IMG/VR virus record: IMGVR_UViG_3300045988_115170
Span: 1 to 33,034 of that record
Reading direction: 5' to 3' (one strand)
From: a virus
Length of the DNA stretch: 33,034 nt
Of this stretch, positions 1 to 13,967 are shown one piece after another. The number at the start of each line of letters is the position of its first letter. Within the stretch, counting starts at the first letter, position 1. A program made the translations under genes and the position numbers. The notes beneath the pieces were generated by a model. That model was not told the DNA's origin. It ran no database searches and saw only the letters and a list, made by a program, of their open reading frames with translations.

Positions 1-119
1 CATCGCTGGGCAAAAGTCAGTGTTGTCGCTGATATGGCAGTATTGGTGCGCTGAGATGCACGGCGACACCAACCCCTGCACACTGTTAAAGTTGCCCCAG
101 GGACTACCCCAAAAAAAAC
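1..119. repeat. Terminal direct repeat copy A, identical to 32916..33034 (circular-closure overlap)
   Basis: Read base by base, 1..119 equals 32916..33034. The repeat lies inside one continuous integrase reading frame. Confidence 0.95.
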
Positions 120-763
120 GGCGCGCTCCCACAGATCAAGAGGTGGCCGACGTCAAAGCGCACCCGGATGGGTTCGGCCTCTGCCCGGCAATAATGATGT
201 ATGCGGGCTTGCGCCTGGGTGAGGTCATGGCGCTCCAGAAAAAGGACCTTGCCGACGGCGAGATCAAAGTCTGTAAACAGGTGGTTTGGCACAACAACCA
301 CCCGGAAATTGAGGATTTAAAAACAGACAACGCCTATCGCACAGTGCCGATCCTCAAGCCCTTGCAGGACGCGCTCGGCACCCGCCTGGACGATCTGGCC
401 GACGACGCTTTTCTGTTCGGCGGCGCGCGTCCTATGACAAAAAGCCGTTATCAAAACGCTTGGCTGCAATACTGCACGGCCATCGGGCGCGTCCATAACA
501 GCGGCAAGCGCTACAAAACCGGCAAGACCTCAAAGACCGGCGAGGTCTTGTATAAGACGGTCATGGAGCCGGATTTCACCGCCCATCAGTTGCGGCACGA
601 GTTCGCCAGCACATTGGTCCAGTGCGGCATCAGTCCCCAGGTCGCCAAGGAATTGATGGGCCACGCCGACATCCTCACAACGCAGCGCTGGTATGCCGAG
701 GCAAAGACCAGCGCCGTCGATGAGGCTGCCGACATACTCAACAACTATTTCACCAATCAATAA
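2..763 (+). CDS. int: Tyrosine integrase, C-terminal catalytic part (continues 32566..33034 across the circular junction; whole protein about 370 aa)
   Basis: The frame is continuous with 32566..33034 through the 119-bp overlap. It carries HQLRHEFAS (HxxR) and GHADILTTQRWY (catalytic Tyr region), typical of phage tyrosine recombinases. Confidence 0.9.
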   Translation: MAGQKSVLSLIWQYWCAEMHGDTNPCTLLKLPQGLPQKKRRAPTDQEVADVKAHPDGFGLCPAIMMYAGLRLGEVMALQKKDLADGEIKVCKQVVWHNNHPEIEDLKTDNAYRTVPILKPLQDALGTRLDDLADDAFLFGGARPMTKSRYQNAWLQYCTAIGRVHNSGKRYKTGKTSKTGEVLYKTVMEPDFTAHQLRHEFASTLVQCGISPQVAKELMGHADILTTQRWYAEAKTSAVDEAADILNNYFTNQ

Positions 764-835
764 TTGTAGTTAATAATTATAGCACAGAACTGGAAGAATG
801 CAGAAAGCATCTGTAAAAGGAAGCGCTCAATAATA

Positions 836-844
836 GTCGTAATA
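836..844 (+). repeat. Candidate integrase arm-type site (GTCGTAATA), left of the att core
   Basis: Same GYCGTAWAA word and same orientation as the four copies at 1012..1060. Confidence 0.35.
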
Positions 845-887
845 TGTTCGCATGGGCTGGTTGTTTGGCGCTTTGGCGTTGTTTTTT

Positions 888-915
888 AAGAGTTCAAATC
901 TCTCTTACTCCGCCA
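888..915 (+). other. Candidate attP core: tRNA 3'-end-like segment (T-arm, acceptor 3' strand, discriminator G, CCA); not a complete tRNA
   Basis: AAGAG-TTCAAAT-CTCTC-TTACTCC-G-CCA fits T-stem, T-loop, T-stem, acceptor, discriminator and CCA. It resembles the 3' ends of Firmicutes tRNA-Ser genes (...TTCGAATCCCTCTTCCTCCGCCA). No matching 5' acceptor strand, D arm or anticodon arm lies upstream. It sits about 125 bp downstream of int. Confidence 0.6.
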
Positions 916-923
916 ACGTAAAA

Positions 924-965
924 ACCGCGATACAGCCTGCAAAGGTTGATGTATCGCGGTTTTTC
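924..965 (+). terminator. Rho-independent terminator immediately after the tRNA-like att core
   Basis: ACCGCGATAC (924..933) pairs with GTATCGCGGT (951..960) around a 17-nt loop, followed by TTTTT. Confidence 0.7.
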
Positions 966-1011
966 GTTTGTGTGATAGTGCAAAATAGTGTAAGATACTG
1001 CAAGAAAATGA

Positions 1012-1060
1012 GTCGTAAAATGGCCGTAAAACGGTCTAAGGTCGTAAAAAGGTCGTATAA
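1012..1060 (+). repeat. Four direct copies of GYCGTAWAA (1012, 1023, 1041, 1052): candidate integrase arm-type sites
   Basis: GTCGTAAAA, GCCGTAAAA, GTCGTAAAAA and GTCGTATAA lie in one orientation in noncoding DNA beside the att core. The integrase N-terminus looks like an arm-binding domain. Confidence 0.45.
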
Positions 1061-1065
1061 AATCC

Positions 1066-1082
1066 GTGTCCAGAATGGACAC
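1066..1082. repeat. Palindrome family copy 1: GTGTCCA-GAA-TGGACAC (perfect)
   Basis: Read directly. Intergenic, just beyond the lysis-operon terminator. Confidence 0.9.
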
Positions 1083-1085
1083 AAA

Positions 1086-1120
1086 AGCGGCGGGCCGCCC
1101 TCGATGGGATGCCCGCCGCT
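1086..1120 (-). terminator. Bidirectional rho-independent terminator closing the lysis operon
   Basis: AGCGGCGGGC (1086..1095) pairs with GCCCGCCGCT (1111..1120). T-runs follow on both strands. The holin stop codon is at 1124. Confidence 0.75.
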
Positions 1121-1123
1121 TTA

Positions 1124-1318
1124 TTATTTACCGCCGCCCTTGCCCTCGCTCTGGGTGCCGAAGTAGAATGCGATAACCATTGTCACAATGGTCATCACGG
1201 TGTCGGGTTGCAAGCCACCGCGCAGGGCCAGCACAGCAAAGACGGTCACGACGATCAGCGTCACGATGGTCTTTACTTTGATGAGCGCGGCCAGGTTCTT
1301 CCAAAAGTCCTGCATCAA
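1124..1318 (-). CDS. Holin (64 aa, two predicted TM helices, charged C-terminus)
   Basis: Small protein with two hydrophobic helices (IVTLIVVTVFAVLAL and VMTIVTMVIAFYF). Last gene of the lysis cassette, with overlapping start/stop with the upstream gene. Confidence 0.7.
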   Translation of the reverse strand: MMQDFWKNLAALIKVKTIVTLIVVTVFAVLALRGGLQPDTVMTIVTMVIAFYFGTQSEGKGGGK

Positions 1319-1593
1319 ATCTTCCTCTCCTTCTCCTCGTGCCGTTCCAGATCGTCAATGCGATGGTTCGCGACAGCAATTTTTTCTTCCATCACCGGTA
1401 TGCGCTGCGCAAAGTTGTTGTGCGTCCGCACCTCGCGTGTCAGCTCCTCGATCTTGGTGTCCGTTACGGCCTGCGCAACCTCCAGCTGGTGGGTGACCTT
1501 GTCGCTCAGGCTTTTGTTGTTGAAGTAGTTCGTGATCATCACGCCCACCAGGCCCAGCCCTGCCGTGATGAGCGCGATTATAATCTGCTCCAT
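1315..1593 (-). CDS. Holin-like lysis accessory membrane protein (N-terminal TM plus coiled coil; BhlA/XhlA-like architecture)
   Basis: Start MEQIIIALITAGLGLVGV is preceded by GAGGTGG. It has one N-terminal TM helix and a coiled-coil tail, and sits between the endolysin and the holin. Confidence 0.55.
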   Translation of the reverse strand: MEQIIIALITAGLGLVGVMITNYFNNKSLSDKVTHQLEVAQAVTDTKIEELTREVRTHNNFAQRIPVMEEKIAVANHRIDDLERHEEKERKI

Positions 1594-1603
1594 TGGCACC
1601 ACC

Positions 1604-2269
1604 TCAGACCCATTCGCTTTTATACAGCCCGGCATCGGTCAGGCCGCGGCTCTGGCACACGGCAAAGACGGCGTCTGCATCGCCCTGCGAGACCGGCCCT
1701 ACCGTGATGACCTGCAGCTTGCCGGTGCCGTTCTGGGCCGTCTGCGCGCCGCTGGCGGCCTGCTCGGGCTGCTGTACAGCGTGCTCGCCGGGGCGGTATG
1801 TAAACACCTGCCCGCTCGCCGTGGTGAAGTCGTTGTCCAGCCACACCAGCGGGTTGGTGCGCTTGCCGTTCAGGATTACTTCAAAGTGCAAATGCGCCCC
1901 GAACACATTGCCGGTCACGCCGCTGTAGCCGATGATCTCGCCCTCTTTGACCCTCTGGCCGTACTTGACGCAATAGCTGGACAGGTGAGCGTACCGTGTC
2001 TGCAAGGTCTTGCTTTTGTAGTCGGCGTGTCTGATACGCACCATGTTGCCATAGCTCTGCATACCCGTCCGCGTGCGTCCGTCCCAGTCCTGGGTCTGAT
2101 CCACGGTGCCGTCCTCGGCGGCATAGACCGGGCGGATATACATGTTGTCAATCTGGGTGCGCAGGTCAACGGCCTGGTGCAAACTGCCGTCATTGTAATA
2201 CCACCCTTGCGTCAGCACATGAATGTCCAGCGGCCAGTGCAGCAGGACTTCTCCATTAGATAGTCTCAT
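1604..2269 (-). CDS. Endolysin, M23 (LytM-type) metallopeptidase with a C-terminal extra domain
   Basis: HQAVD (HxxxD) and HLHFEV (HxH) motifs of peptidase M23. Located in the lysis cassette. Confidence 0.8.
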   Translation of the reverse strand: MRLSNGEVLLHWPLDIHVLTQGWYYNDGSLHQAVDLRTQIDNMYIRPVYAAEDGTVDQTQDWDGRTRTGMQSYGNMVRIRHADYKSKTLQTRYAHLSSYCVKYGQRVKEGEIIGYSGVTGNVFGAHLHFEVILNGKRTNPLVWLDNDFTTASGQVFTYRPGEHAVQQPEQAASGAQTAQNGTGKLQVITVGPVSQGDADAVFAVCQSRGLTDAGLYKSEWV

Positions 2270-2400
2270 TGTATTACCTCATCTGTATCCATCACCAGCG
2301 CCTCATACTCATCCAGCAGGTCTCCCGCGCCCGGTATGGCCTCGCGGTAGTCCCACAGTACAAGCATCACCCGCGCCAGTAAATCCGCTTCCTCGCTCAT
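2266..2400 (-). CDS. Small hypothetical protein (44 aa), translationally coupled on both sides
   Basis: ATGA start/stop overlaps with both the upstream gene (2397..2822) and the endolysin. Found by manual translation; it is below the ORF-track size cutoff. Confidence 0.4.
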   Translation of the reverse strand: MSEEADLLARVMLVLWDYREAIPGAGDLLDEYEALVMDTDEVIQ

Positions 2401-2822
2401 TCTTCCACCGGCGGCGTGGGCCACTGCACCGCGTAGGGGAAGCCAGCCTGCTCGGGCACGTCCCGCAGCGCCTGGCGGTAGGCCTTCCAGTCGGCCTTCA
2501 CCGTCTTGGCATCGCCCAGCACAGTCCAGTCCGTGGCGGCGATCAGCTTGTCACGCTCAGCGCGCACGGCAGCCGCAGCGGCGTCATGGTCGGCCTGTTT
2601 AACCAGGGCGGCCCAGGCATCAACGTCAACCTGCCCATCGGGCACCTGTGTGACCGTCTCGTATGTCGTGTAGCTGTACCCGTGCCAGGGCGTGTCCATG
2701 TTGGACACAGCCTCGCGGGTGACCTCCTGCTCATCCTCGTAGACGCGCACCAGCGTCAGGCCGTTGGGCAGCGGCTCGCACTTCAGCCGGGCGTGCTGCT
2801 CGTTGCACTCACATTTAACCAT
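2397..2822 (-). CDS. Tail-fibre assembly chaperone-like protein
   Basis: The C-terminal ...RDKLIAATDWTVLGDA...WKAYRQALRDVPEQAGFPYAVQWPTPP resembles the conserved C-terminal motif of phage tail-fibre assembly proteins. Its start overlaps the RT stop by 8 nt. Confidence 0.55.
   Translation of the reverse strand: MVKCECNEQHARLKCEPLPNGLTLVRVYEDEQEVTREAVSNMDTPWHGYSYTTYETVTQVPDGQVDVDAWAALVKQADHDAAAAAVRAERDKLIAATDWTVLGDAKTVKADWKAYRQALRDVPEQAGFPYAVQWPTPPVEE
2692..2708. repeat. Palindrome family copy 2: GTGTCCA-TGT-TGGACAC (perfect), inside a CDS
   Basis: Read directly. It encodes VSNMDT in the chaperone-like gene. Confidence 0.9.
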
Positions 2823-3882
2823 TTTGTACCACCTTTCTGATTTTTCGGTAGCTCACAACACCGTCCACGTACTTCACGCGGAATCGGTGCTCGTTTGCGT
2901 GTTTCAGCTGGCCGATCCGGCACGCGGCCTGCCGGGCCTGGCGCTGCGTCGGCACGCCATGTGGCCGGGCCCTGATGTCCAGACACAGCCGGATCAGCCG
3001 CCGCGTCGTGCGCTTCCTGTAACTCACATGGTCGCAGTAGATCACAAACCCCAGCCCATCCAGTGCGCGCCCGCGGTGCCTGCCGTCCCGGTCCACGTAG
3101 TCGGTGCGGTAGACCTGCCAACACTGGTTGCAGGTGTAGTCGGCAGCCGCCAGCCACTCCATTGCCGCCTGCAGGGCGCGGTGCAGCTTGCGCTTATTCG
3201 GCCCATACAGGTGGATATTGTCCACATAGCGGTAATAGTGCGCCACGCCGTCCAGCCCGCGCACATAGCGGTCAAACGCCGTCATAGCAAGATTCTGAAA
3301 CCAGTGCGACGTCACATACCCAATCGGCAGCCCGTCGCTGAAGCTGTCCACAACAGCGTCAGCCAGCCGCAGCCAGTATTTATCCTTTATCAGCTGCCGG
3401 TAGCCGTACTCTATAAAATCATGGTCGCTCTCCGGGAAGCAATGGTGTATGTCCAGCTCTGCGCCGTACTTCATCCCGGAGCGGTCTGTTTTCATCCACC
3501 GCGCAACCTGCTTCGCGGCCTTGTGTGGCCCGCGTCCCTTGATGCCCGCTATGCAGTAGGGGTCAAGTTTGGGCACAACTGCGTCATAGATTGCCTCGAT
3601 CAATACCCAGTGCATGACCCCGTCCGGCCAGTACGGCACATAGTCGATGTCCCGCAGCTTGCCGTTGCTCGGCTCATAGTGCCGGGTGTGTATCGGCTCG
3701 CTGGGCTTCCAGCCGCCGTACCGTACCCAGTGCTGCACCTTGTCAATGCACGCCTCAATGTGCGTCAGGGCGGGCAGCGTGGTAGGGTCTTGCATCCTCT
3801 TTTTCGCATGGTCTACCATACACCTCCGTATAAATTCCCGGTCTGTCATGACCGGCAGTAAATTTCCAATGCGTTTAGGCAT
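2815..3882 (-). CDS. DGR-type reverse transcriptase (355 aa)
   Basis: Collinear with the Bordetella phage Brt architecture: KRIGNL N-terminus, YEPSNGKLRDI, AELDIHHCFPESD (motif A), LPIGYVTSHWFQN (DGR IGxxxSQ-type motif, here SH), YYRYVDNIHLYG (motif C, here YVDN) and LGFVIY. The TR lies directly upstream. The ORF-track extension to 4056 is read-through of the TR and spacer. Confidence 0.85.
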   Translation of the reverse strand: MPKRIGNLLPVMTDREFIRRCMVDHAKKRMQDPTTLPALTHIEACIDKVQHWVRYGGWKPSEPIHTRHYEPSNGKLRDIDYVPYWPDGVMHWVLIEAIYDAVVPKLDPYCIAGIKGRGPHKAAKQVARWMKTDRSGMKYGAELDIHHCFPESDHDFIEYGYRQLIKDKYWLRLADAVVDSFSDGLPIGYVTSHWFQNLAMTAFDRYVRGLDGVAHYYRYVDNIHLYGPNKRKLHRALQAAMEWLAAADYTCNQCWQVYRTDYVDRDGRHRGRALDGLGFVIYCDHVSYRKRTTRRLIRLCLDIRARPHGVPTQRQARQAACRIGQLKHANEHRFRVKYVDGVVSYRKIRKVVQNG

Positions 3883-4024
3883 TTTATAATCTTTCTTTGG
3901 CCTACACACGTTTCGTCCGCTGTCGCGTCTACTCGGCGTGCCGGATGGGCCAATTTTCAGCCAGGGCTGAGGCATCTCGATCTCTGTGTACAGGTCGCCT
4001 ACGGCCCAAAGGGCCGCAGCCAAA
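3883..4024 (-). ncRNA. TR-to-RT spacer (about 142 nt), probable part of the DGR template RNA
   Basis: Noncoding stretch between the TR end and the RT start. It contains the GC hairpin CGGCCC-AAA-GGGCCG at 4002..4016. The role is inferred from the Bordetella DGR, where the TR-brt spacer is needed for priming. Confidence 0.5.
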
Positions 4025-4141
4025 GAAAGGTCCGCCGAACTGTTCCACCAGAGCAACGACGCGTCGTTCCTGAGATTGACGTTGAACGCGCCCGCGTTGT
4101 CACCGTTGTTGGAGTTCGCACCGCGCAGAACGATACGGGAA
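4025..4141 (-). repeat. DGR template repeat (TR), 117 bp
   Basis: Ungapped alignment to 4232..4348 (offset 207) gives 13 mismatches. Ten of them are at coding-strand adenines of this copy. It contains 7 AAC codons in the VR frame. Confidence 0.9.
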
Positions 4142-4188
4142 TGATGAGATCGTTAGCCTGTCCCGGATAATGTCAATGTCGTACAGTT

Positions 4189-4210
4189 GCGGGGGCCTTG
4201 CTGCCCCCGC
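4189..4210 (-). promoter_or_regulatory. GC-rich hairpin just 3' of the VR (DGR target-recognition hairpin and probable terminator)
   Basis: GCGGGGGC-CTTGCT-GCCCCCGC, an 8-bp stem starting 9 nt past the target-gene stop codon. This matches the position of the hairpin/cruciform required downstream of the VR in the Bordetella phage DGR. Confidence 0.7.
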
Positions 4211-4218
4211 GCCCCCGC

Positions 4219-5790
4219 TTAACCGGGGATGGAAAGGTCCGCCGAACTGTACCACCAGAGCAACGACGCGTCGCTCCCGAGATTGACGTAGAACGCGCCC
4301 GCATCGCCACCGCTGCCGGAGTACGCACCGCGCCGAACGATCCGGGAACCGCTCTTGTTAATCCAGAAATAGTCTGCAAGATAGGTTCCGCTGCTTCCGC
4401 CGACTTCCTTTGTGATCTGCAGCCACGGGAACCGCTCATCGGCCTGCAGGTTCTTGGCCCAGCCCTCGTTAGGCAGCGTGAGGGAATCCAGCTTCGTGTA
4501 GTTCTCAACGCTCGACCAGTTGTAGTTGGTGTCGTTGCAGATGTAGGGCACGCCGTCAACGATTTTCCAGTCGCACTCAAAGCGCCACTGGTTGCCATAG
4601 AGCGGGTTCTCGCAGCCGTAGAACACAAAGCTGTGCTTGCCGTCCGTATTGCTCACAGGGCTGCCGCAGGTGGAGATGACGCTGTTGGCCGTGCCAGTGC
4701 TCTGCATGATGCGCCAGACCTTGTGGTCGGTGGTCGTGGTCACCGCGTCGCCGGAGAAGCTGGCCTTGACGTTGGCAGTGTCGCCCTCGATGGCTTCGAT
4801 GGCCGTCACAATGCGCTGGCTCGCAACGCTCGCATTCTCGTCGCCGGTACCGATGGAGATGACGTTGCCGACCTCCAGCACGCCCTTGGCAACGGTGACA
4901 GCCGCCTCATCGGCACGCGCGCCGGTCACGGCCTGGTTGGTGGCGTACAGGTCGGTGACGCCGCGCATCTTGGCCTGGACGTTCCGCGTGCCGTACACCA
5001 CGATCATCAGGTAGGCCAGCACCTCAAAGTCGGCACTTGTATTGATGCAGTAGGTCTCGCCCCACAGCCGCGCCGCGGCCAGAAACTGCGAGATCGTCTT
5101 GCTGCCGGTGCTGACAACGCCCGCAATACTGTGCAGCTTGCCGTCGCTGCCGATGGAGCCAGGGAACGCGGGCAGGTAGCACTTCTGTTTGAGGGAGCCG
5201 TCCGCATTGCGGAACTTCCGCGGTGCGCGGAATCCGGGCATCGGCACCGCCGACACGCGCGGATTGACATCCAGCATGCCGGAGACATAGAAGAGCGGCA
5301 CCTCAACCAGCACCTCGCCGTTCGTGCCATCCTCAATGTAGCCGGGCTGGCCCTTGTAGGCGTTGACCGTGACCGTGCCGTCCGCGTTCAGCGTGCAGCA
5401 GCAGCGCCGCATACCCGCCCAAGGATAGACGCCGTCAAAGTCGTTTTGTCCTGCGCTGGTATCGGTGCCGGGGGTAAACACAAACTCCGCAGCTGCCCCC
5501 GTCCGCGTGCCCGCGCTGGTACTGCCGGAGAAGTCTACACCGTAGAATGTAGCACCGACAGCCGAGGCCGCAGCCTTGGCAGATGCGGCGGCAGCAGTAG
5601 CGCTCTGGCCCGCCTGCGTAGCACTGGCCTGGGCGGCAGCCTTGGCCGCGTTCGCCTCGGCCAGGTTGTTGCCCGCGTTCGCCAGCAGCGTGGCGAACTC
5701 CTCACGGGTGCCGGTGTAGCCGCGCGCCTTGGCATCGGCGTAGGCGGTTACTGCGCCCAGATCGGTGGTAAAAACAGAACTATCAGCCAT
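4219..5790 (-). CDS. DGR target: tail fibre / receptor-binding protein with a C-terminal variable (C-type-lectin-like) region
   Basis: Start MADSSVF is preceded by GGAGGT. It follows the tail-fibre gene and holds the VR at its extreme C-terminus. The pattern G..NAG.F..NL resembles Mtd-type VR regions. Confidence 0.8.
   Translation of the reverse strand: MADSSVFTTDLGAVTAYADAKARGYTGTREEFATLLANAGNNLAEANAAKAAAQASATQAGQSATAAAASAKAAASAVGATFYGVDFSGSTSAGTRTGAAAEFVFTPGTDTSAGQNDFDGVYPWAGMRRCCCTLNADGTVTVNAYKGQPGYIEDGTNGEVLVEVPLFYVSGMLDVNPRVSAVPMPGFRAPRKFRNADGSLKQKCYLPAFPGSIGSDGKLHSIAGVVSTGSKTISQFLAAARLWGETYCINTSADFEVLAYLMIVVYGTRNVQAKMRGVTDLYATNQAVTGARADEAAVTVAKGVLEVGNVISIGTGDENASVASQRIVTAIEAIEGDTANVKASFSGDAVTTTTDHKVWRIMQSTGTANSVISTCGSPVSNTDGKHSFVFYGCENPLYGNQWRFECDWKIVDGVPYICNDTNYNWSSVENYTKLDSLTLPNEGWAKNLQADERFPWLQITKEVGGSSGTYLADYFWINKSGSRIVRRGAYSGSGGDAGAFYVNLGSDASLLWWYSSADLSIPG
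4232..4348 (-). repeat. DGR variable repeat (VR), 117 bp, encoding the C-terminal residues of the target protein
   Basis: See the TR entry. The VR reads ...RGAYSGSGGDAGAFYVNLGSDASLLWWYSSADLS and the TR reads ...RGANSNNGDNAGAFNVNLRNDASLLWWNSSADLS. Confidence 0.9.
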
Positions 5791-7027
5791 GGATCTGTAC
5801 CTCCAAATTCGTGTCATTGACAATAGCAAAATCAATCTTATCTTTCAGATTGGTCGTGCGCGTGTACATCAGATGCCCCGTGTCTTGGTCAACGCCCATC
5901 TGCATATAGCCGTTGCTCAGCGCGGCCTGCCGCGCCAGCTCCACGTTGGCGGTGACATCGACCTGCTTCTCGGTCACATCCTGCTGGCGGGCCTTGACAT
6001 CCTCCTGGATGCCCTGCATCTCGGTCAGCTTCTCGGCCACGCCCTCGTTGATGACCTTTGTCGCCGCATCGCCGGCGGTTTTGGCGGCATCCGCAGCGCT
6101 TTTTGCACTCGCAGATGCGCTCGCGCTGGCGCTCTCGGCAGCGGCCCGCGCGCTTTCCGCTGCGCTTGCCTTTTCTGTGGCCGTACCGGCAGACTGCCCC
6201 GCATTCGTTGCGGATGCAGCAGCCGCAGCAGCGCTTTCCTTTGCCGCCGTGGCAGACCCGGCAGCGGCACCGGCCTCCTGTGTGGCCTTGGCGGCGGCTT
6301 CGCCAATGCTGTTGGCATCCTTGGCGGCAGCCTCAGCAGAGGTCGCTGCTCTCATCTCAGACTGCGATGCCGCGTTCTGCGACTTCCCGGCAGCGGTTGC
6401 CGCAGCCGCAGCGCTGGTAGCGGCATTGCCCGCCGCATGCGCAGCCTCCACAGCAGCGTTCTTGGCCGCGTTGGCGGTATCTGCGCTGGCCGCAGCCGCC
6501 GCAGCGCTGGCAGCTGCACCGCCCGCTTCCTCGCCCGCCTTGATGGCGGCATCCTCAGCGGCCCGGTGCGCGTTTTCCGCGGCATCCTTGGCGGCCTGCG
6601 CCACCCGTATCGCGTTGTTGGAGTTCTCCAAGATCTGCTGCACCACATCCGGCGTAGGTGTGCCCGGATTATCGCCGTCGATGTCCGCGTGATCCCGGAT
6701 GGAGTAGGGGAGATCGACTGAGATACGCTGCACGCCGTCCGCAAGGCCTAAAAACACGATCTTGCCGCGGCCAGCCTTGTCTGCCGTCGCCTCCGCAGGG
6801 ACCTCCAGCACGCCGTCCGCGCCAACCGTCTTCTTGGTCGCAGACCCACCGGGCGCGTGGAACACAGCCAAAGTCTCCAGACCGCTCCATCCATCGCCCT
6901 GGACGATGCGGATATTCTCGATGCCGTAGCTGTCCTTGGTTCCCAGCTCAATGCTGGGCGTGACCGAGTAACGGTTGTCAACGACAACGTCATAATTCAT
7001 CAACACAATGGTTTTTATAGTGGCCAC
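5783..7027 (-). CDS. Tail fibre / baseplate upper protein-like (BppU_N-like N-terminus followed by a long Ala-rich coiled coil)
   Basis: Position in the tail-tip module. It has an N-terminal beta-rich domain and then about 200 aa of Ala/Ser/Glu-rich helical repeat. Confidence 0.55.
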   Translation of the reverse strand: MATIKTIVLMNYDVVVDNRYSVTPSIELGTKDSYGIENIRIVQGDGWSGLETLAVFHAPGGSATKKTVGADGVLEVPAEATADKAGRGKIVFLGLADGVQRISVDLPYSIRDHADIDGDNPGTPTPDVVQQILENSNNAIRVAQAAKDAAENAHRAAEDAAIKAGEEAGGAAASAAAAAASADTANAAKNAAVEAAHAAGNAATSAAAAATAAGKSQNAASQSEMRAATSAEAAAKDANSIGEAAAKATQEAGAAAGSATAAKESAAAAAASATNAGQSAGTATEKASAAESARAAAESASASASASAKSAADAAKTAGDAATKVINEGVAEKLTEMQGIQEDVKARQQDVTEKQVDVTANVELARQAALSNGYMQMGVDQDTGHLMYTRTTNLKDKIDFAIVNDTNLEVQIHG

Positions 7028-7033
7028 CTCCTA

Positions 7034-7276
7034 TTAGCTGCCGTTCCCGCCGATGGGATATTCCACAATGATCGTGCCGGATTCTCTGGCTATGTGAACC
7101 CGCTGACCGGCTGAAAATGTGATAGCGGCATTGTATGGGTAATGCTTTTCTGCCGCCGTGGTATCGCCCGGCAGGATCAGCGCGATCCCGTCGCTGTAAA
7201 TGGCACTCACGGTTGCAATATTTCCGCTCTTGGCGGTCGTCTCAAGCGCTTTCCGCTGTTGGTAATTCTCAATCAA
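7034..7276 (-). CDS. Hypothetical small tail-module protein (80 aa)
   Basis: Overlapping gene junction within the tail-tip module. No recognisable motif. Confidence 0.4.
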   Translation of the reverse strand: MIENYQQRKALETTAKSGNIATVSAIYSDGIALILPGDTTAAEKHYPYNAAITFSAGQRVHIARESGTIIVEYPIGGNGS

Positions 7277-8306
7277 TGCTGTAAAACACCTTCTTTGCCG
7301 TGTGCGTCATCTGGCCGCCGGGGGCACAGTCAAGCGTCCACTCCTGTTCCTCCAGCAGGCCGATGCCGTCGCGCATCATTAGTATGCTGTCATTTAACCT
7401 GTGAGGCTGCTCTGTGTCCCCGCAGGATGTAAACGTATAATTTGCGGCCCCCATCATGCTCAGCAGCATCCTGTTCTTCACATGCGTTTCAAGCGCAGCC
7501 TGCGACGCGATTCCCTCTACCGTCTCCACGCTCACGATGCGACGCCCTCGCCGCATGATGCTCAGCGGGCTTGTGGGGTTGACGTTCTCAGCCACGGCGC
7601 GCAGCTCTTGACCCAGATCCGCACTGCTCACGATGTCCACGAAAACATTGGCCGCATTGAATGTGTCTGCCTCAACACTCATGGGGATGCGCAGCAGGGT
7701 CGCCTCATCGGCTCCGTAGCGGTGCGTGCGGTTATTGATGGACGCTGGCTCCCAGGGCTCTGCCACGGCAACGCCGCTGCCGTCAAAATAAATGTCCCGG
7801 TAATTGATCTCGGCAAGCAAAGCGGACACGACTGCGTACCGCGTTGTGCCGATCTCCCATTCATGGTCTGTCATCAGCACATCGTCTGTGTCGATGATGC
7901 TGACCACGTTGACGCCAGCCGCCAGCAGCTGCTCGCGGATCGCCGTGGTGTATCGCGTCCCGGCGCGGATCATTAGGGTGCGCTCCAGCACACTCAGATT
8001 GCGCAGGGCATAGCCCTGGTCGTACCCGGTCAGTTCCTGCGTTTTGTGGCCGTATTCGTCCACGCTGGCAGGGCACGTCGTAACACAAAACAACCCCAGT
8101 GGCGTTCGGTCAGCGTTATCCACGCGCACAACACTCAGCATGTCCGTCAGCCAGTTGACGTCCTCGTCCGGCTCCACGGTCAGTGTGACGGTGCTTTTGA
8201 CCTCGGCGCTGCCCGTAAAGCGGATTTGCGGGGTGCAGTCAGCAGGCACCTGCAGCACGCGGTAGGGTGCACCGCTGCGCATGGCGACAAACTCATATCG
8301 GATCAT
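7269..8306 (-). CDS. Tail-tip / baseplate hub-like protein (possible Tal N-terminal-type)
   Basis: Assigned by size and position only: second gene after the tape measure. Confidence 0.35.
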   Translation of the reverse strand: MIRYEFVAMRSGAPYRVLQVPADCTPQIRFTGSAEVKSTVTLTVEPDEDVNWLTDMLSVVRVDNADRTPLGLFCVTTCPASVDEYGHKTQELTGYDQGYALRNLSVLERTLMIRAGTRYTTAIREQLLAAGVNVVSIIDTDDVLMTDHEWEIGTTRYAVVSALLAEINYRDIYFDGSGVAVAEPWEPASINNRTHRYGADEATLLRIPMSVEADTFNAANVFVDIVSSADLGQELRAVAENVNPTSPLSIMRRGRRIVSVETVEGIASQAALETHVKNRMLLSMMGAANYTFTSCGDTEQPHRLNDSILMMRDGIGLLEEQEWTLDCAPGGQMTHTAKKVFYSID

Positions 8307-10815
8307 ACTTGACCGCCTCCCGCTGTATCTCGGTTATGCTCAAGCTCAACGGCGTGCAGCCGTGGTCGCGGCTTTCCTGCAAATCCTTAAAAACGCCAAT
8401 CGCCAGATGCCCGGCTCTGTCCTTATATACGACCTGCTGTCCGGCTAAGCTGCGCAGCTTAGCCAGCTCATCCGCGCTCTTGCATGCGTGCGCAATAGTA
8501 TGTGTCACTACTCGGTTGCCTGCATCATGCCAGACGGGGAGCTCTTGACCCCAGTACTGCCGGTAACTGCCGTTAAGGCTTGTGCTTTTGGTGTAGTTCT
8601 GGTAGCTGGTCGCATATTTCAGCGCCATCCACCAGCTGCCGTTGAGCGGTCCGATTGCGGCATAGGGCACACTGGGCGCAACCGTGACCGGCGCGCTGTC
8701 CGTATAGTAGCCATCCGCATCAAAAATGCGGATCACGTACCGGTGATCCAGCACGCCGGTGCGGTCTGTGTACAGTCCTCTGTCCGCCTTGGCGATCAGT
8801 TCACCGTCCCGCAGGATGTACGCGTTATCTCCGCCCCAATGCAGCCGTACCTCTCCCCAGCAGCTCTCTGCGTTGCAGATCACCGGGTCGCCAGGCTGAT
8901 TCTTGACTTTGATCTCGCAACTGGCCCACGGGGACGCGTCCCCGTAAGTGTTGTAGATGCGGACAGACAGAGTATGCTTTCCGTCCGCCAGCACAGCGTC
9001 AGACTGCCACTCTTTGCCCGTGCCGTAGTGCACGCCCAGGCTCACTCCATCCACTGCGATCTCATAGCCGTCCTGCTCCTGCGCCTGCCAGCGCATTTTT
9101 GCAAGCGGTTTGTTATCATAGTAGGAGATGACCGGAGCTTTCGGCGCGCGGCGGATTGCAAAAATCGCCGCGCCGGAATAGTTGCCAAACACGCCGTCTG
9201 TGTTTTTGGTGCGCACGCGCCAGTAAATAACGCCGCTGGAAAATGTGCCGGCAGCTGCCTGGTAGCTCTTATCTGCATTGTCCGCGTTGGCCAGCACAAG
9301 ATAGGACGCGCCGCTGTCGGTAGAGTAGCTCAGCTCCCACCCGGTTTGAGCCGTACCTGTCACGTTCGCGTGCTGCCACACAAACGTAATGCCCTGGACA
9401 GTGTCATCCATGTACTCGCCCGCGGGGCTCACTGCTACAGGTGTGCTCAGCGCGTCCAATGTGGACACGCTGATCGTATCGCTGATAACCTTTGAGCCGG
9501 TGTTGGCAACCGCCTCAACATACCAATCCAGTGTTGTGCATCCCTCGGCAAATGTGTTTGCCGGTACGTCTGCATACTGCTGCGATCCGCTCACGGCGGC
9601 GGTGTGCCACGCGCTCTCGTTGTTGGCCTTGTAGTAAAGTGTCGCACTCTGCTGCGTGACGTCGCCGGGCCGGTCATCACTGTCAACGCTAAAAACCCAG
9701 CTGAATCGGTTGTCAACTGCCCGTGGCGCAGATGCTCCCGCTGCAGGGGTCGTGCCCTTGACGGACACTGGCACCTCAACGTTGGTCACCTGCACCCAGC
9801 CGGATGTGTGCGTGGTTCCCACGGTACTCCGCGCTATAACGCGCCACTGGTAGCTGCCAATGGGCAGTACGCCGCAGTTGACGGTCACGTGGGTCGTGTC
9901 GTTGCCGACGCTGGCAAACTGCGCAGGGTCGGCCATATTATCCGTGCGGTACTGAAGCACAGCAGATGCCTGCTGCAGCGCACCGCTGATAGAGCCACTG
10001 GCGATACTGCCGACAAAAGCCCAGCTAAACGTGGCGTCAAAGCCGTAATACGTCTTGCTGGTAGGGCGCAGGTCGTCCACCTTGGCGCTGGGGTCGGCAA
10101 GTGACAGGGAGTAGGTAGGGCTCTCCGTCACCGTACCGGATCCATAAGCCCCTACTCGCACCCGCCAGCGGATGCCGCTGCCGCTTGACCATGCGGTAGT
10201 ATCCAGATCGTAGGACGTTGCGCCATTGCTCAGGCTGATTGTCTGGCCGTTTCCGCCGTCCTGGTCCGTAATAACGATCTGGCAGGTGGAGTTGCTGCGC
10301 TCAAAGTCATCTTCTGCGTTAGTCGTCCACTGCAAACGGTACTTTGTGTATCGCGCCACCGTTCCGCTGGTCCAGGCTGTGCCCGTCGGCGTGATGACAC
10401 CTTGGTAGCTTACGCAGTTGATCACCGTATCGCTGCGGCTATTACCAACGTTGTTGTATCCGCTCTCGGCATTCACATATATGCCGTAAGCTAAAATTTC
10501 TTTTTTGTTTTTCTGAGTGAACGCGTCAAATGAAAACGTGCAATTCCCGTAAGAAAAATTGCTCTGCTCGCAAACGCTGTTCTCGCTGCTGTGATAGCTC
10601 GAACCTGCGCTGTTAGCAAGTGCATATCCAACCAGCCTGACTCTTCGGCTGCCATTTCCGTATGCAGGGACACGGACGCTCAAGCTCCCAATATACCGGC
10701 TTGTGTTCCCCATCCCAGTGCTGAATAGCCACGAGCATCTGTATGCTTGGTAGTTGGCATTGGGGACCCTGTTGTTTGCCGCAAAGTTTCTCGTGCTCCA
10801 GCTGTGCGATTTCAC
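8293..10815 (-). CDS. Large tail structural protein with tandem Ig/FN3-like modules (possible evolved distal tail protein)
   Basis: First gene after the tape measure. A module signature recurs (IRWRVRVGAYGSG, YQWRVIARSTVG, LDWYVEAVANTG, IYWRVRTKNTDG). Confidence 0.5.
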   Translation of the reverse strand: MKSHSWSTRNFAANNRVPNANYQAYRCSWLFSTGMGNTSRYIGSLSVRVPAYGNGSRRVRLVGYALANSAGSSYHSSENSVCEQSNFSYGNCTFSFDAFTQKNKKEILAYGIYVNAESGYNNVGNSRSDTVINCVSYQGVITPTGTAWTSGTVARYTKYRLQWTTNAEDDFERSNSTCQIVITDQDGGNGQTISLSNGATSYDLDTTAWSSGSGIRWRVRVGAYGSGTVTESPTYSLSLADPSAKVDDLRPTSKTYYGFDATFSWAFVGSIASGSISGALQQASAVLQYRTDNMADPAQFASVGNDTTHVTVNCGVLPIGSYQWRVIARSTVGTTHTSGWVQVTNVEVPVSVKGTTPAAGASAPRAVDNRFSWVFSVDSDDRPGDVTQQSATLYYKANNESAWHTAAVSGSQQYADVPANTFAEGCTTLDWYVEAVANTGSKVISDTISVSTLDALSTPVAVSPAGEYMDDTVQGITFVWQHANVTGTAQTGWELSYSTDSGASYLVLANADNADKSYQAAAGTFSSGVIYWRVRTKNTDGVFGNYSGAAIFAIRRAPKAPVISYYDNKPLAKMRWQAQEQDGYEIAVDGVSLGVHYGTGKEWQSDAVLADGKHTLSVRIYNTYGDASPWASCEIKVKNQPGDPVICNAESCWGEVRLHWGGDNAYILRDGELIAKADRGLYTDRTGVLDHRYVIRIFDADGYYTDSAPVTVAPSVPYAAIGPLNGSWWMALKYATSYQNYTKSTSLNGSYRQYWGQELPVWHDAGNRVVTHTIAHACKSADELAKLRSLAGQQVVYKDRAGHLAIGVFKDLQESRDHGCTPLSLSITEIQREAVKYDPI
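9452..9468. repeat. Palindrome family copy 3 (one mismatch): GCGTCCA-ATG-TGGACAC, inside a CDS
   Basis: Read directly. It shares the flank GGACACGCTGATC with copy 10 (32474..32490, read on the opposite strand). Confidence 0.6.
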
Positions 10816-12473
10816 GTCAACGCCCCCTGTCTCATGCTCATGGCTTCATTTTTTGCAATGGCCACAATATCGTTAAATTCCTTGACATTCTTGGCGTCAA
10901 TGGTTATCTGCCCGATACTGATATTGCTGCCGCCCAGAAGTCCGCGCGTCTGGCTGTTGTTGTAGATGCGCTCGCCTCCTCGCAGATTGACCAGTTCCGG
11001 CCCGTTTTCGCCCACAAGCGCCAGACCGCCGTGCGCGCTGCGCGTGCCGGTGGCATAATGCGGCACCTTGCTGTTGGCTGCGCGCATTGTCCCCATTGTA
11101 GCCGAGGATATACCGCTCATGGCGCTGTTGATTTCGTTTCCTTTGCCGATCAGAACAGCGACCACAGCTACCAGCGCAGTAATGCCGGCAACGATCAGCA
11201 TGATTTTTATATACAGCGGATCCATAAAGCTCATAACGCCGCCGATCATGCTTTTCACGGTTCCAACCGGCCCCTGCAATTCTTTAATGGCCTTCACCAC
11301 GAGCAGCACTACTGTGGCGATGCTGGTAATAGAGATAACTGCCGTCAACACTGGCGTTGGGATAGCGTTCAGGGCCTCGGCAAACGCTGTAATGATGGGC
11401 AGCAGCGCCTCGGCAAAGCTGCGCTTCACGGCGTCGCCCTGCTTGTCCAGCTTTTGCAACGCATCGTTAAGTCTGCCGAGACTCTGCCACGTCTCGTTAT
11501 CGGTCACATAACCGACCTCGTGCGCCTGCTCGGCCAGTTCTTTCAGTCTGCCGCTGCCCGCCTCGATCAGCGGGTTTAGATCGGTAGCAGACCTGCCAAA
11601 GATGTCCATAGCCAGCGCATCGCGCTCGGTCTCGTTTTTCATCTTGCCCAGGGCGTCAATGGTTTTCAAAAACACCTCATAGTTGTCCTTGAGCTTTCCG
11701 CTGCTGTCCGACACTTTTACATGCAGTTTTTTAAATGCCTCTGCTGCGGAGCCTGTCCCAGTAGCCGCCGTCTGCATATTGTTGGTCAGCTTTACCAGAC
11801 TGCCGCGCAGCGTGTCCGTGCTTACATCCACAAGCTCACTGGCGTACTCAAACTCCTGCAGCTGTTCTGTGGTCAGGCCGGTCTGGGTGGACAGGGTCAG
11901 CAGGTCATCTGCTGTCTTGCTCATATCTATTGTGGATTTTGCAAGTGCTCCCACCAGGCCGCCGACAACGGTCACCGCGGCTGCACCGCTGGCCGAGAAG
12001 CCGTCCAGCTTGTCAACCGCAGTCTGCAAGCCGGGCGGCAGACTGATTCCCAGCGCATTGGCCAGGCCGTTGACCACATCCGCCAGGCTGGCGGTGGTCT
12101 TGTTGGTTCGCTCCTGCTGGTCGCTCAGTTCCTTCAGGAGGTTTTCCTGCTTGGCAACCTCTGTCTGGGCGCTGATCAGGCTTGCTCGCCACTGCATGGT
12201 CGTTTTACTGGACTCACCCTCACGCCGAGCGCTGTTTTCGTAGGCCTGCTGCAGCACCTGCACTTTATCCCGGTAGCTCTGCAAAGTCTGCTGTGCGGCC
12301 TCGTACCGCTGCTGCAGGGCGGCCTGCCGGTCGTCCATTTCGCGGGTCTGTTCGGTCACAAGCTGCATCTGCTGCTTATTTACCTTCAAGCCCGCGTTTA
12401 CTTCGCTCAGTGCCGCCTTGAATTGCTGGTCATTTTCCACGACAAGGCTGACACCTGCTTTAGGCATCGACAT
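10812..12473 (-). CDS. Tape measure protein
   Basis: Long helical protein with a central hydrophobic segment, directly after the G/GT chaperone genes. Start MSMPKAG is preceded by AAGGGGG. Confidence 0.85.
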   Translation of the reverse strand: MSMPKAGVSLVVENDQQFKAALSEVNAGLKVNKQQMQLVTEQTREMDDRQAALQQRYEAAQQTLQSYRDKVQVLQQAYENSARREGESSKTTMQWRASLISAQTEVAKQENLLKELSDQQERTNKTTASLADVVNGLANALGISLPPGLQTAVDKLDGFSASGAAAVTVVGGLVGALAKSTIDMSKTADDLLTLSTQTGLTTEQLQEFEYASELVDVSTDTLRGSLVKLTNNMQTAATGTGSAAEAFKKLHVKVSDSSGKLKDNYEVFLKTIDALGKMKNETERDALAMDIFGRSATDLNPLIEAGSGRLKELAEQAHEVGYVTDNETWQSLGRLNDALQKLDKQGDAVKRSFAEALLPIITAFAEALNAIPTPVLTAVISITSIATVVLLVVKAIKELQGPVGTVKSMIGGVMSFMDPLYIKIMLIVAGITALVAVVAVLIGKGNEINSAMSGISSATMGTMRAANSKVPHYATGTRSAHGGLALVGENGPELVNLRGGERIYNNSQTRGLLGGSNISIGQITIDAKNVKEFNDIVAIAKNEAMSMRQGALT

Positions 12474-13028
12474 CTGCAAGCCCCCTTTCCTGTGGCAGTT
12501 CAATACCATTCATGGCGCAGTATTCTGTAAACTGTGCAAGCAGTTCATCCAGGCTCAAAAACCGCGTTTCCCGCCGGGTATAGCCCAGCAGCCCCACCGC
12601 GATGTATTGCAGCCTGGGGAAATTTATGATTCGGTCGCCGTCAAAGTGCCGCTCGGGGACATCGTCAACCCAGATTCGCTCAGCATCGTCTTCATCGCCT
12701 GCAGCGCCTGACGGCCTGACCCGTTTTTTCCGTAAAACTCCATAAAGGCCTCTTCAACGCTTGCGGTCAAACCGCCTTGCAGATCGGAGAACGAAATGAG
12801 TTTTTTAACAACCCCAAGGCTCGGAGCCTCGTTATCTCGGTGATGTTCTTCGTTGTCAAGCTCAACGCCCTCGCGGATCAGCAGCCAAATGATATACGCT
12901 GCCTCCTCCGGGTCGTTCAGCTTTGCCACGATGGTGCTCAAGTCAGAGTAGTGCTCCTGAAGCTCCTTAACGTTCTGCAGGTCGAACAGTGCCGGGTACT
13001 TGCGGCCTCGCAACGTAATTTCCGCCAT
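12460..13028 (-). CDS. Tail assembly chaperone frameshift product (gpGT analogue, -1 frameshift at 12723..12729)
   Basis: After A_AAA_AAC the -1 frame stays open for about 88 codons (RVRPSGAAGDEDDAERIWVDDVPERHFDG...ELPQERGLADVDA*). It ends at 12460..12462, just inside the tape-measure gene. Confidence 0.7.
12624..13028 (-). CDS. Tail assembly chaperone (gpG analogue)
   Basis: Lies between the major tail protein and the tape measure. A slippery heptamer sits near its 3' end. Confidence 0.75.
   Translation of the reverse strand: MAEITLRGRKYPALFDLQNVKELQEHYSDLSTIVAKLNDPEEAAYIIWLLIREGVELDNEEHHRDNEAPSLGVVKKLISFSDLQGGLTASVEEAFMEFYGKNGSGRQALQAMKTMLSESGLTMSPSGTLTATES
12723..12729 (-). promoter_or_regulatory. 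Programmed -1 frameshift slippery heptamer A_AAA_AAC
   Basis: The zero-frame codons gga aaa aac give an X_XXY_YYZ heptamer in the correct phase. Confidence 0.65.
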
Positions 13029-13032
13029 AACC

Positions 13033-13608
13033 TCACCCCTTGATGTTCAAGAATGTTTTCAGTGCAGCCAGGGCCTCTTCGTATCCATCAAACTCCTGCT
13101 TTTTCACAAAATTCCCTTCACTGTTGCACTCCGCAGATCCTACCAGCTTGGTCGTGCTGTAACTTGTGCTCTTGGAGGCAGTGCTGAGGTTATCGTCCAC
13201 AGGGTCAAAGCTCGCGCGGTAATAGCCCACCAGGCGATACGCAAGCTTGCGGTCAGGCTTTTTCAGCTTGCCAAGCGCGGCAACGCGCACAAGGGCAGGC
13301 GTATCGCCCTCTTTGCGCTCAAGCGTCTTTGTGCTCTCATCATAGTGGTGACCGCACAGTTCCGCCTCATCTGCCAGACTCAGATAGCTGCGATCAATGC
13401 TCAGCTTCGCGCTGGGCGCGCCTGCATCGCGCTGCTCGCGGCGGTCGCCGGCCCACAGCTCGCTGCTGTCGCTGTCGTTTTCGCCGGCGTAGCTCACAAC
13501 AGCGCGCGTGATCTTGCCATCGCCGAGGGTTTCCGTCTCAGACCCATCCGCGCTGGTCACCACAGTAATAGGGCAATAGCCATAGTAGGGAAGTCCGATA
13601 TAAGCCAT
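13033..13608 (-). CDS. Major tail protein (siphovirus type)
   Basis: Position upstream of the G/GT genes, size (191 aa) and composition. No sheath gene is present in the genome. Confidence 0.75.
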   Translation of the reverse strand: MAYIGLPYYGYCPITVVTSADGSETETLGDGKITRAVVSYAGENDSDSSELWAGDRREQRDAGAPSAKLSIDRSYLSLADEAELCGHHYDESTKTLERKEGDTPALVRVAALGKLKKPDRKLAYRLVGYYRASFDPVDDNLSTASKSTSYSTTKLVGSAECNSEGNFVKKQEFDGYEEALAALKTFLNIKG

Positions 13609-13967
13609 TATTGTGCCTCTCTTTCATTCCAGTCGCATCCATCATCGGCTTCTGCCTCAACGTATGCAACAAAGTGTTTTGTGTCGTTATCGTAGCCGTA
13701 CTCGGTCGAGCCGATGATAAACCCGGCATCCCTGAAAGCACAGCGCATTTTTCTGGCGCAGGGCTGCGGCAGATCTCTCGTATACCAAGCCGCGCGCACC
13801 TGCAAGTGTTGCTGCTCATCCAGATCTCCGGCGTATATTTCCGGCGCATCGTCCAAGACGCTCAGCACCACATAGCTGTCCGGCAGCGGATCCTCCTCAT
13901 TTTTAACAAATGAGACATTGCTGCACACAGTTTCCAGTGCGGCCAAGGCCGCATCAATCATGGTCAT
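13608..13967 (-). CDS. Tail terminator / tail completion protein
   Basis: Synteny between the gp10-like neck protein and the major tail protein. Confidence 0.5.
   Translation of the reverse strand: MTMIDAALAALETVCSNVSFVKNEEDPLPDSYVVLSVLDDAPEIYAGDLDEQQHLQVRAAWYTRDLPQPCARKMRCAFRDAGFIIGSTEYGYDNDTKHFVAYVEAEADDGCDWNEREAQ

Follow-up and report, generated by a model that had tools for sequence, protein, structure and literature searches.

We analysed a 33,034-nt IMG/VR virus record, IMGVR_UViG_3300045988_115170 (hereafter the window, meaning this whole stretch of DNA), which carries a diversity-generating retroelement (DGR) whose reverse transcriptase (RT) has Asp-Asn (DN) in catalytic motif C where the DGR signature has Asp-Asp (DD). 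Our data make it likely that this is a complete DGR that lacks the accessory protein Avd, uses a functional DN RT and resides among the tail genes of a temperate phage from the human gut. The cassette lies entirely on the minus strand, in the order target gene with a C-terminal variable repeat (VR), two hairpins, template repeat (TR), a 142-nt structured spacer, RT and a tail-fibre assembly gene, with the RT start codon 142 nt past the end of the TR. The parts that carry the argument are these:

2815..3882, minus strand: DGR-type RT of 355 aa, starting MPKRIGNL (Pfam RVT_1, 33.1 bits, above cutoff; PHROG phrog_1423, E 1e-58).
3453..3451 (D144), 3459..3457 (E142), 3306..3304 (H193), 3222..3220 (D221) and 3219..3217 (N222), minus strand: motif codons of the key RT residues.
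4025..4141, minus strand: TR, with 22 adenines and in-frame AAC codons.
4232..4348, minus strand: VR, a 117-nt repeat 89% identical to the TR.
4096 C (VR 4303 T), 4127 T (VR 4334 G) and 4135 T (VR 4342 G), minus strand: non-adenine TR positions that differ in the TR/VR alignment.
4219..5790, minus strand: target gene encoding a 523-aa tail protein (PHROG phrog_5302 'tail protein', E 2.9e-48), with the VR as its last ~40 codons.

The RT belongs to the DGR clade, by sequence and by predicted fold. Its best sequence match in the PDB was the Bordetella DGR RT (bRT; 8ub7, E 2e-4), and an AlphaFold2 (AF2) model with a predicted local distance difference test (pLDDT) score of 90 matched best the active-state bRT structure 8ub7_A (TM-score 0.79/0.86, root-mean-square deviation 2.9 Å). 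NCBIfam models of group II, retron, Drt2 and Drt3a RTs scored 21-36 bits on this protein against cutoffs of 200-390, and an Rfam scan of positions 2500-6000 returned the RT-18 RNA motif alone, without a group II intron RNA.

Two signatures of DGR RTs are altered in this protein: RT domain 4 reads IGYVTSH where the signature is [I/V/L]GxxxSQ, and RT domain 5 reads YVDN where it is Y(V/M/A)DD. Both alterations had been pointed out in an earlier note made from the letters of the window alone, and both are present, with plus-strand gtg at 3304-3306 specifying His193 and plus-strand att at 3217-3219 specifying Asn222. When aligned to bRT, N222 corresponds to D216, H193 to Q187, and Glu at residue 142 to Lys136. 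The bRT metal ligands D138 (the motif A Asp) and D215 (the first Asp of motif C), from which Mg lies 2.2 and 2.3 Å away in the cryo-electron microscopy structure (10.1101/2023.10.23.563531), are conserved as D144 and D221. The same study names D216 among the catalytic aspartates and reports that Q187 contacts the incoming nucleotide (10.1101/2023.10.23.563531), and a bRT with a Q187P substitution retains adenine mutagenesis (PMC7826257). A natural xDN form of motif C, GDNQ, is found in active polymerases, the L proteins of Ebola virus, respiratory syncytial virus and vesicular stomatitis virus (PMC5648267).

Asp-Asn and Ser-His are fixed and selected in the window's lineage. Of the relatives drawn from viral, genome and metagenome collections (64-97% identity), 37 could be read across the motifs, and 37 of 37 have IGYVTSH and YVDN. 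The RT genes are under purifying selection (dN/dS 0.085-0.165), and among 23 unique genes the Asn222 codon is AAT in 13 and AAC in 10. These counts bear on the proposal, raised in the earlier note as something that re-sequencing could reveal, that YVDN and SH are sequencing or assembly errors. Nothing speaks for errors beyond the rarity of these residues in textbook motifs and the fact that SQ variants were previously treated as inactivation or errors (Toro and Nisa-Martinez 2014, PMC4244168), while the same residues recur in 37 independent assemblies from three collections and in many clusters built at 50% identity. We therefore give the error explanation practically no weight.

To place these residues more widely, 1.84 billion cluster representatives were searched, which yielded 2643 relatives, and the best 140 that span both motifs were scored (50%-identity clusters). 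Among these 140, motif C was DN in 34 and DD in 106, and the commonest endings of motif B were SQ (76), SP (23), SA (8), SH (7), NQ (6) and CQ (5). As SQ occurs in just 76 of the 140 neighbouring representatives, it is not universal in this RT radiation. The DN forms (YMDN, YIDN, YADN, HMDN and NMDN) fall into many separate groups that are interleaved with DD groups, and a neighbour-joining tree contained 16 pure-DN clades and, by an approximate count, at least 11 DN/DD switches. Whether the D-to-N and Q-to-H substitutions form a clade or are singletons had been posed as a check, and the outcome is a clade, with DN found in more than one.

Motif C does not vary alone. In an alignment of 158 RTs, the residue pair at position 142, two residues ahead of the motif A Asp, and position 222 was K/D in 78, E/N in 48, Q/D in 14, Q/N in 6, E/D in 1 and K/N in 0; position 224 also tracks motif C (Val, Ile or Leu with DD, Thr or His with DN), as does position 276. 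In right-hand polymerases, the palm sheet places the motif A strand next to the motif C hairpin. Given this neighbourhood and the covariation between positions 142 and 222, we interpret the pattern as an exchange of a Lys-Asp pair for a Glu-Asn pair, with Gln as the intermediate. Because the DN form is selected, recurrent and coupled to motif A, and because the VRs of relatives diversify as described below, Asn222 is best understood as a functional alternative to the second Asp and not as an inactivating lesion.

The TR and VR are copies of a 117-nt repeat at an offset of 207 nt, with 13 mismatches. Ten of these fall on TR adenines of the coding strand, nine in AAC or GAC codons of the target frame and one in AGG, and the binomial probability of at least 10 of 13 mismatches at A, given 22 A in 117 nt, is 9e-6. 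The remaining three, at 4096, 4127 and 4135, are non-adenine mismatches as had been reported before; the changes at 4135 (CGT>CGG) and 4096 (the third base of AAC>GAT) are synonymous, and both 4127 and 4135 come before the first mutated adenine (4116) in the 5'-to-3' direction of the coding strand. After the last mismatch, the 19 nt that complete the repeat on its 3' side are identical in TR and VR, and the sequences diverge beyond them. The window contains a single VR. An exact 12-nt direct repeat, CGGGAACCGCTC, is found at 4343-4354, on the 5' edge of the VR, and at 4426-4437, 83 nt upstream in the target gene, possibly by chance.

Comparison with related loci, which carry L numbers here, shows that this lineage diversifies its targets. 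The nearest relative, L083, has an RT 97% identical to that of the window, and its TR (99.1%), spacer (98.6%) and VR-TR gap (98.9%) are nearly the same, whereas its VR is 82.1% identical, with the differences mostly in TR-adenine columns. Throughout the window's clade, TRs are identical or near-identical within subclades while VRs differ at adenine columns (for example L007, L096 and L098, whose TRs are identical). The target proteins show the same pattern: in 90 close homologues, positions that are AAC, AAT or AGG codons in the TR have an entropy of 2.6-3.5 bits with 10-14 amino acids each, and outside the VR the means for 20-residue blocks are 0.02-0.64 bits. The search for a conserved TR with diverse VRs among relatives, which the earlier note had suggested, was positive. 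DN RTs outside this comparison also adjoin repeats whose TR/VR mismatches are exclusively at adenines (L013 18/18, L016 20/20, L015 15/15, L040 15/15 and L079 18/18). The fraction of TR adenines changed is 0.48-0.49 in DN loci vs 0.56 in DD loci, with similar A>G, A>T and A>C spectra. Across 80 viral loci, 106-173 nt (group medians) separate the TR from the RT downstream of it, with the VR shortly upstream of the TR. Activity of the lineage is observed in these comparisons, and from its intact parts we infer that the copy in the window is active as well.

A different explanation of the element is that it is a recently inactivated, or frozen, DGR, in which the Asp-to-Asn change killed or crippled the RT and the non-adenine mismatches are drift in a VR that homing has ceased to overwrite. 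Of the 13 mismatches, three are indeed non-adenine, yet two of these three are on the 5' side of the first adenine to be mutated, and relatives that are diversifying show these T>G changes too. The second Asp of YxDD is classically catalytic, and its bRT counterpart D216 is counted among the catalytic aspartates, but Asn is present in all 37 relatives with both synonymous codons in use and a dN/dS of ~0.1, and DN RTs of other clades sit beside clean adenine-only repeat pairs. Although Avd was not found among the small open reading frames (ORFs) of the window and decayed relatives do exist (an adenine-depleted TR in L006/L097, an RT stop in L094, a collapsed repeat in L002/L089), the TR of the window keeps its 22 adenines, its RT, RT-18 motif and hairpins are intact, and L083 shares its TR and not its VR. 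On this evidence we consider inactivation quite improbable. The earlier note had offered two readings, a frozen DGR or an Avd-independent lineage with an altered active site; the first is not supported and the second is, yet it is only partly new.

Several of the related loci are of interest in themselves. L002 (repeat at 1949-2063) and L089 (1832-1946) contain a single repeat copy, in which the target (..YFYINKSG) runs into the repeat, followed by the spacer and RT; this represents either a ~207-nt deletion by VR/TR recombination, which leaves a dead DGR, or an assembly collapse. The TR of L006 and L097 (5008-5122 in L006) has 12 adenines vs 22-26 in relatives, with AAC replaced by CTC, TCC, GGC or TAC. 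Half of the TR/VR mismatches in these two loci are non-adenine, and it looks as though VR-like sequence overwrote the template, making L006/L097 a candidate for a truly decayed element in the window's clade. L094 (RT at 4001-5062) has an in-frame stop in its RT and a 1-nt insertion in its TR compared with neighbours, and is a pseudogene or a low-quality assembly.

We next consider the non-adenine mismatches themselves. To compare them among clades, changes at T, C and G sites were counted between the first and last adenine mismatch. In the window's clade, 17 of 299 T sites were changed, all to G, compared with 4 of 600 C sites and 4 of 489 G sites; in other clades T>G was found at 7 of 1058 and 5 of 1143 sites (Fisher p = 3e-7 vs the window's clade, although the sequences are related). 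The T>G changes occupy 10 different TR columns, with no T>C and no T>A, and their frequency varies with the base that follows on the 3' side (G 23/143, A 6/37, C 0/217, T 3/68). At synonymous third positions, T>G was seen in 3 of 57 cases vs 4 of 753 for other non-A third positions (p = 0.009). The most frequent hotspot is position 4127 (TCTG>TCGG), which is changed in 9 of 26 unique VRs and corresponds to Leu486 to Arg in 24 of the 90 target homologues; the second is Trp512 to Gly in 30 of the 90. As both T>G sites of the window, 4127 and 4135, are a T followed by a purine, two of its three non-adenine mismatches fit the signature of the clade. The background used for T>G included loci retrieved with P0032, a TSH/YMDD RT. 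A P0032 scan of viral contigs returned SQ-type RTs at 79 of 80 loci (78 TSQ, 1 LSQ) and TSH at one, and these loci served as T>G background and not as a test of Ser-His.

The simplest reading of this T>G pattern is that the RT probably inserts dC opposite U on some occasions after copying a purine, and selection on the two hotspot residues probably adds to it. An alternative source, adenine mutagenesis of an antisense TR, was rejected, since it would give mostly T>C and none was seen. It is also conceivable that RT misincorporation plays no part, and that the T>G and other non-adenine differences reflect selection for Leu486Arg and Trp512Gly or ancestral VR alleles that were retained. The two commonest sites are non-synonymous and changed in 27-33% of the population, compared with 5% at synonymous sites, but synonymous third positions still show T>G well beyond other non-adenine changes (3/57 vs 4/753), and selection on two residues does not account for 10 TR columns without a single T>C or T>A. 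Column 15 (4127 in the window) is near the 5' edge, where homing often stops, whereas internal sites such as column 92 would be overwritten by each homing event. The counts are not independent, as the sequences are related; even so, the dependence on the 3' neighbour and the near-background T>G of other clades (7/1058 and 5/1143) argue for a property of this clade's RT, and we regard selection or retained alleles as a somewhat unlikely full account. In the bRT-Avd system, misincorporation opposite U is at baseline, 0.5% (PMC7826257).

A premise of the earlier note, that each round of homing by an active DGR erases differences outside adenines, is wrong. Non-A-to-N substitutions are reported in 23% of DGRs and the 5' homing boundary is variable (PMC5758913); 4127 and 4135 lie on the 5' side of the first mutated adenine, and T>G recurs throughout the clade in VRs that otherwise diversify. 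As a separate observation, residue 500 of the target homologues, a TTC codon in the TR, is changed from Phe to Trp in 7 of 90, which takes T>G together with C>G unless some TRs carry TGG.

The absence of an Avd-like ORF near the cassette, and the separation of about 90 bp between VR and TR, were likewise noticed from the sequence, and both were borne out by our measurements. The VR-TR gap in the window is 90 nt. No accessory gene, avd or HRDC, was found: in a Pfam search (E <= 0.1), 20 small ORFs of the window matched ordinary phage families alone, with no Avd-type four-helix-bundle family. Avd was also absent from the 25 families listed for 149 co-oriented small ORFs from 15 diverse relatives, in which seven further families had a single member. 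The group medians of the VR-TR gap are 74-240 nt in relatives (223 nt in P0032 relatives), and because these gaps are so short they leave no room for avd. The same Avd-less order of VR, TR and RT is kept across the RT-18-associated radiation, with siphovirus-like and myovirus-like tails. The lack of Avd is real but already known. Wu et al. (2018, PMC5758913) reported that 26% of DGRs are without avd, that 29% have 'Architecture A' and that Lineage 3 is without avd, and they found no trans avd in genomes with avd-less cassettes. They also described Avd proteins as 'very poorly conserved' (PMC5758913). A literature search for Avd-independent DGRs returned Wu et al. alone, and Roux et al. 2021 discuss neither Avd nor the motifs.

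In Bordetella, Avd is essential and, acting ~40 Å from the active site, positions the template:primer duplex (10.1101/2023.10.23.563531). The element of the window could thus be active with a helper, Avd-like or equivalent, that works in trans and comes from the host or another prophage, or is a small phage protein that was not recognised. Duplex positioning could be carried out by another protein, Avd is poorly conserved (PMC5758913), several small ORFs of the window are without a family assignment, and the hairpin after the TR is located where BPP-1, the Bordetella phage, has an Avd-binding stem-loop. One particular host or phage helper is, however, hard to reconcile with an Avd-less order maintained in such dissimilar phages, the 25 most-hit families of the 149 flanking small ORFs do not include Avd, and the avd-less genomes of Wu et al. 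contain no trans avd (PMC5758913). We judge a helper in trans to be unlikely and retain the reading of an element that works without Avd.

The RNA structures in and around the spacer are as follows:

3891..3969, minus strand: RT-18 RNA motif (Rfam RF03021), a full-length match of 42.9 bits (gathering score 41.3) that lies 9 nt ahead of the RT start codon.
4000..4018, minus strand: hairpin directly 3' of the TR, with an 8-bp stem, UGCGGCCC-UUU-GGGCCGUA.
4212..4229, minus strand: first hairpin after the VR, obtained by folding; its loop contains the stop codon of the target (4221..4219), and almost every clade member has it.
4189..4210, minus strand: GC-rich inverted repeat downstream of the VR, GCGGGGGC / GCCCCCGC, with an 8-bp stem and a 6-nt loop.
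4019..4029, minus strand: 3' end of the TR region, CUUUCUUUGGC, complementary to 3891-3901.
3901..3891, minus strand: 3' tail of RT-18, GCCAAAGAAAG, the complement of the TR-region 3' end, just ahead of the RT start codon.

Of 13 diverse relatives, 11 have RT-18 at the corresponding position (41.8-77.6 bits), and they include both DD and DN types. As it lies between TR and RT in 12 DGR loci, with the window counted, we assign RT-18 to the DGR RNAs. In its original description RT-18 was given no function; RT-10 is the BPP-1 spacer, and a role of other RT motifs in DGRs was speculation only (Weinberg et al. 2017, PMC5737381).

The hairpin after the TR occurs at the same position in every clade member, with at least seven different, fully complementary stem sequences, and because these stems vary and yet stay fully complementary we regard it as a selected structure. 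It contains the GC hairpin at 4002-4016 that had been noted previously, which is therefore real. The accompanying remark that only the VR has a hairpin in Bordetella is not correct, since BPP-1 has an Avd-binding stem-loop directly after the TR, at spacer nt 5-32 (bioRxiv 10.1101/2023.10.23.563531). The stem of the inverted repeat at 4189..4210 is kept with a changed sequence in L006 and L100, and by its position this repeat is the putative counterpart of the canonical GC-rich inverted repeat that follows the initiation of mutagenic homing (IMH) site in DGRs.

The predicted pairing of the TR end with the RT-18 tail is 11-12 bp long, encloses the whole spacer and is predicted in 10 of 10 aligned clade members, with a median duplex energy of z = -3.1 vs shuffles. 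Because the sequence is invariant there, the pairing has no covariation support within the clade. Some other clades have different complementary pairs at the TR end and RT-18 tail. We rejected this duplex as a family-wide covarying helix, as it was significant in 15% of the non-clade loci, and keep it as a lead.

On these observations a working model can be proposed. The TR and spacer would be transcribed as one RNA, probably with the tail operon, and the spacer would fold so that the TR 3' end pairs with the RT-18 tail and presents the template to the RT, as in the self-priming model of Bordetella. The RT would then copy the TR with misincorporation at adenines and, in the window's clade, probably also insert dC opposite U where that U follows a purine. 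The cDNA would take the place of the VR between the 3' segment common to both repeats and a crossover whose 5' position varies, with the whole process running without an Avd protein. A scan for promoters and terminators found nothing on the coding strand within the cassette.

Several considerations weigh against the reading of a functional, Avd-less DN element. The three non-adenine mismatches of the window are compatible with some drift. The evidence for Avd absence comes from Pfam profiles, and Avd proteins are poorly conserved, so that a non-homologous or host-encoded helper may be involved. Physical contact between residues 142 and 222 is suggested by covariation alone, the tree from which the DN/DD switches were counted is a quick neighbour-joining tree of a 240-column core, which makes that count approximate, and the pairing of the TR end with the RT-18 tail beats shuffles in only 15% of loci from other clades. 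Finally, we know of no DN-type DGR RT that has been assayed.

For the wider radiation we suggest, tentatively and with somewhat less than even confidence, that a large branch of phage DGR RTs rebuilt its active site (Asp to Asn, Lys to Glu) and works Avd-free on RT-18, and that the YVDN/Ser-His sub-lineage added U-to-G changes at U following a purine. If this is true, the wider spectrum would let the element diversify codons that contain no adenine, for example Leu486 to Arg and Trp512 to Gly.

Among known systems, the BPP-1 DGR (mtd-VR, avd, TR, brt) is close to the window element, and bRT is the closest solved structure by sequence and predicted fold. In both elements the TR/VR differences are adenine-specific and the VR encodes the C-terminus of a phage tail protein. 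They further share a GC-rich inverted repeat downstream of the VR, a structured RNA spacer that separates TR from RT, and a stem-loop that immediately follows the TR. The topology of the predicted TR-end/RT-18-tail pairing also resembles the TR:spacer template:primer duplex of BPP-1. The window element differs in lacking avd, in YVDN vs YMDD of bRT, Glu vs Lys136 and SH vs SQ, in an RT-18 spacer vs RT-10 of BPP-1 (PMC5737381), in the order target-VR-TR-RT with its 90-nt VR-TR gap, and in an apparent T>G signature vs the baseline of bRT opposite U (0.5%; PMC7826257). Architecture A and Lineage 3 of Wu et al. (2018, PMC5758913) share with the window a cassette of target, TR and RT only, with no accessory gene; Lineage 3A, however, is restricted to Bacteroides, whereas the window element is in a Clostridia-type phage of 59% GC, and the motif C Asp-Asn is not mentioned in the text of that paper (PMC5758913). 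The GDNQ motif of non-segmented negative-strand RNA virus polymerases resembles that of the window RT in that the second acidic residue is naturally Asn (PMC5648267). Those enzymes are RNA-dependent RNA polymerases of unrelated sequence, so the parallel is an analogy of chemistry and not family homology.

Within the literature searched, Avd absence, non-A mismatches and the variable 5' boundary are documented, whereas three findings seem to be new: that Asp-Asn in motif C is prevalent in DGR RTs and arose repeatedly, that it is coupled to Lys-to-Glu in motif A, and that the YVDN/Ser-His clade carries a T-to-G footprint. A literature search for xxDN variants of motif C in DGR RTs returned nothing relevant. 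These findings matter for detection, as YxDD and [ILV]GxxxSQ serve as defining motifs for calling and classifying DGR RTs and deviations were dismissed earlier (PMC4244168). With Asp-Asn in roughly one in four RTs of a large DGR radiation found mostly in gut phages, accompanied by a compensating motif A change and normal adenine footprints, pipelines or activity calls that demand DD or SQ would miss or mislabel many working elements. For enzymology, the K/D and E/N pairs are natural variants with which to probe the role of the second motif C carboxylate in an error-prone RT, and Avd-less elements of the RT-18 type are candidates for two-part (RT + RNA) mutagenesis tools. If the T-to-G changes are made by the RT, they break the rule that variation is confined to adenine-encoded residues.

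The target gene is embedded in a tail module, with tape-measure and distal tail genes on one side and a tail-fibre assembly gene on the other. The full order is tape measure, distal tail proteins, Ala-rich tail protein, target, DGR, tail-fibre assembly, M23 peptidase, holin-like ORFs and a tyrosine recombinase. Two neighbours flank the cassette directly:

2397..2822, minus strand: tail-fibre assembly/chaperone gene, not Avd, directly 3' of the RT (Pfam Phage_tail_APC, E 2.3e-23; PHROG tail fibre assembly families).
5783-7027, minus strand: Ala-rich low-complexity tail protein of 414 aa, immediately upstream of the target gene (its one PHROG match, to a tail protein, is weak: E 1.5e-4).

The gene of the Ala-rich tail protein is overlapped by long spurious ORFs of the other strand. 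The target protein itself had no match in Pfam, NCBIfam or PDB sequence searches, and its AF2 model (pLDDT 31.8) was unusable for a test of the C-type lectin fold.

The element is prophage-like and has a GC content of 59%. A megablast search of window positions 1-20000 against GenBank phages gave no nucleotide match, and by tblastn the nearest GenBank phage RTs, 28-30% identical, are those of Butyrivibrio phages Arawn, Idris and Closwp03 and of Lactobacillus phage LBR48. Close relatives come from human-gut metagenomes and two metagenome-assembled genomes, binned as Subdoligranulum and Coriobacteriaceae. The phage is probably a temperate human-gut phage of a Clostridia/Oscillospiraceae bacterium, a host assignment that is weak because just these two assembled-genome loci were recovered. 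In the flanks of L013, L016, L024, L054, L059 and others, relatives of the RT reside in contractile-tail phages (Pfam Sheath_initiator, GPW_gp25 and Phage_P2_GpU) and also in siphovirus-like surroundings. In most of the flanks examined, the ORF that immediately follows the RT encodes a 125-160-aa protein; for the window and L004 this protein is a tail-fibre assembly chaperone.

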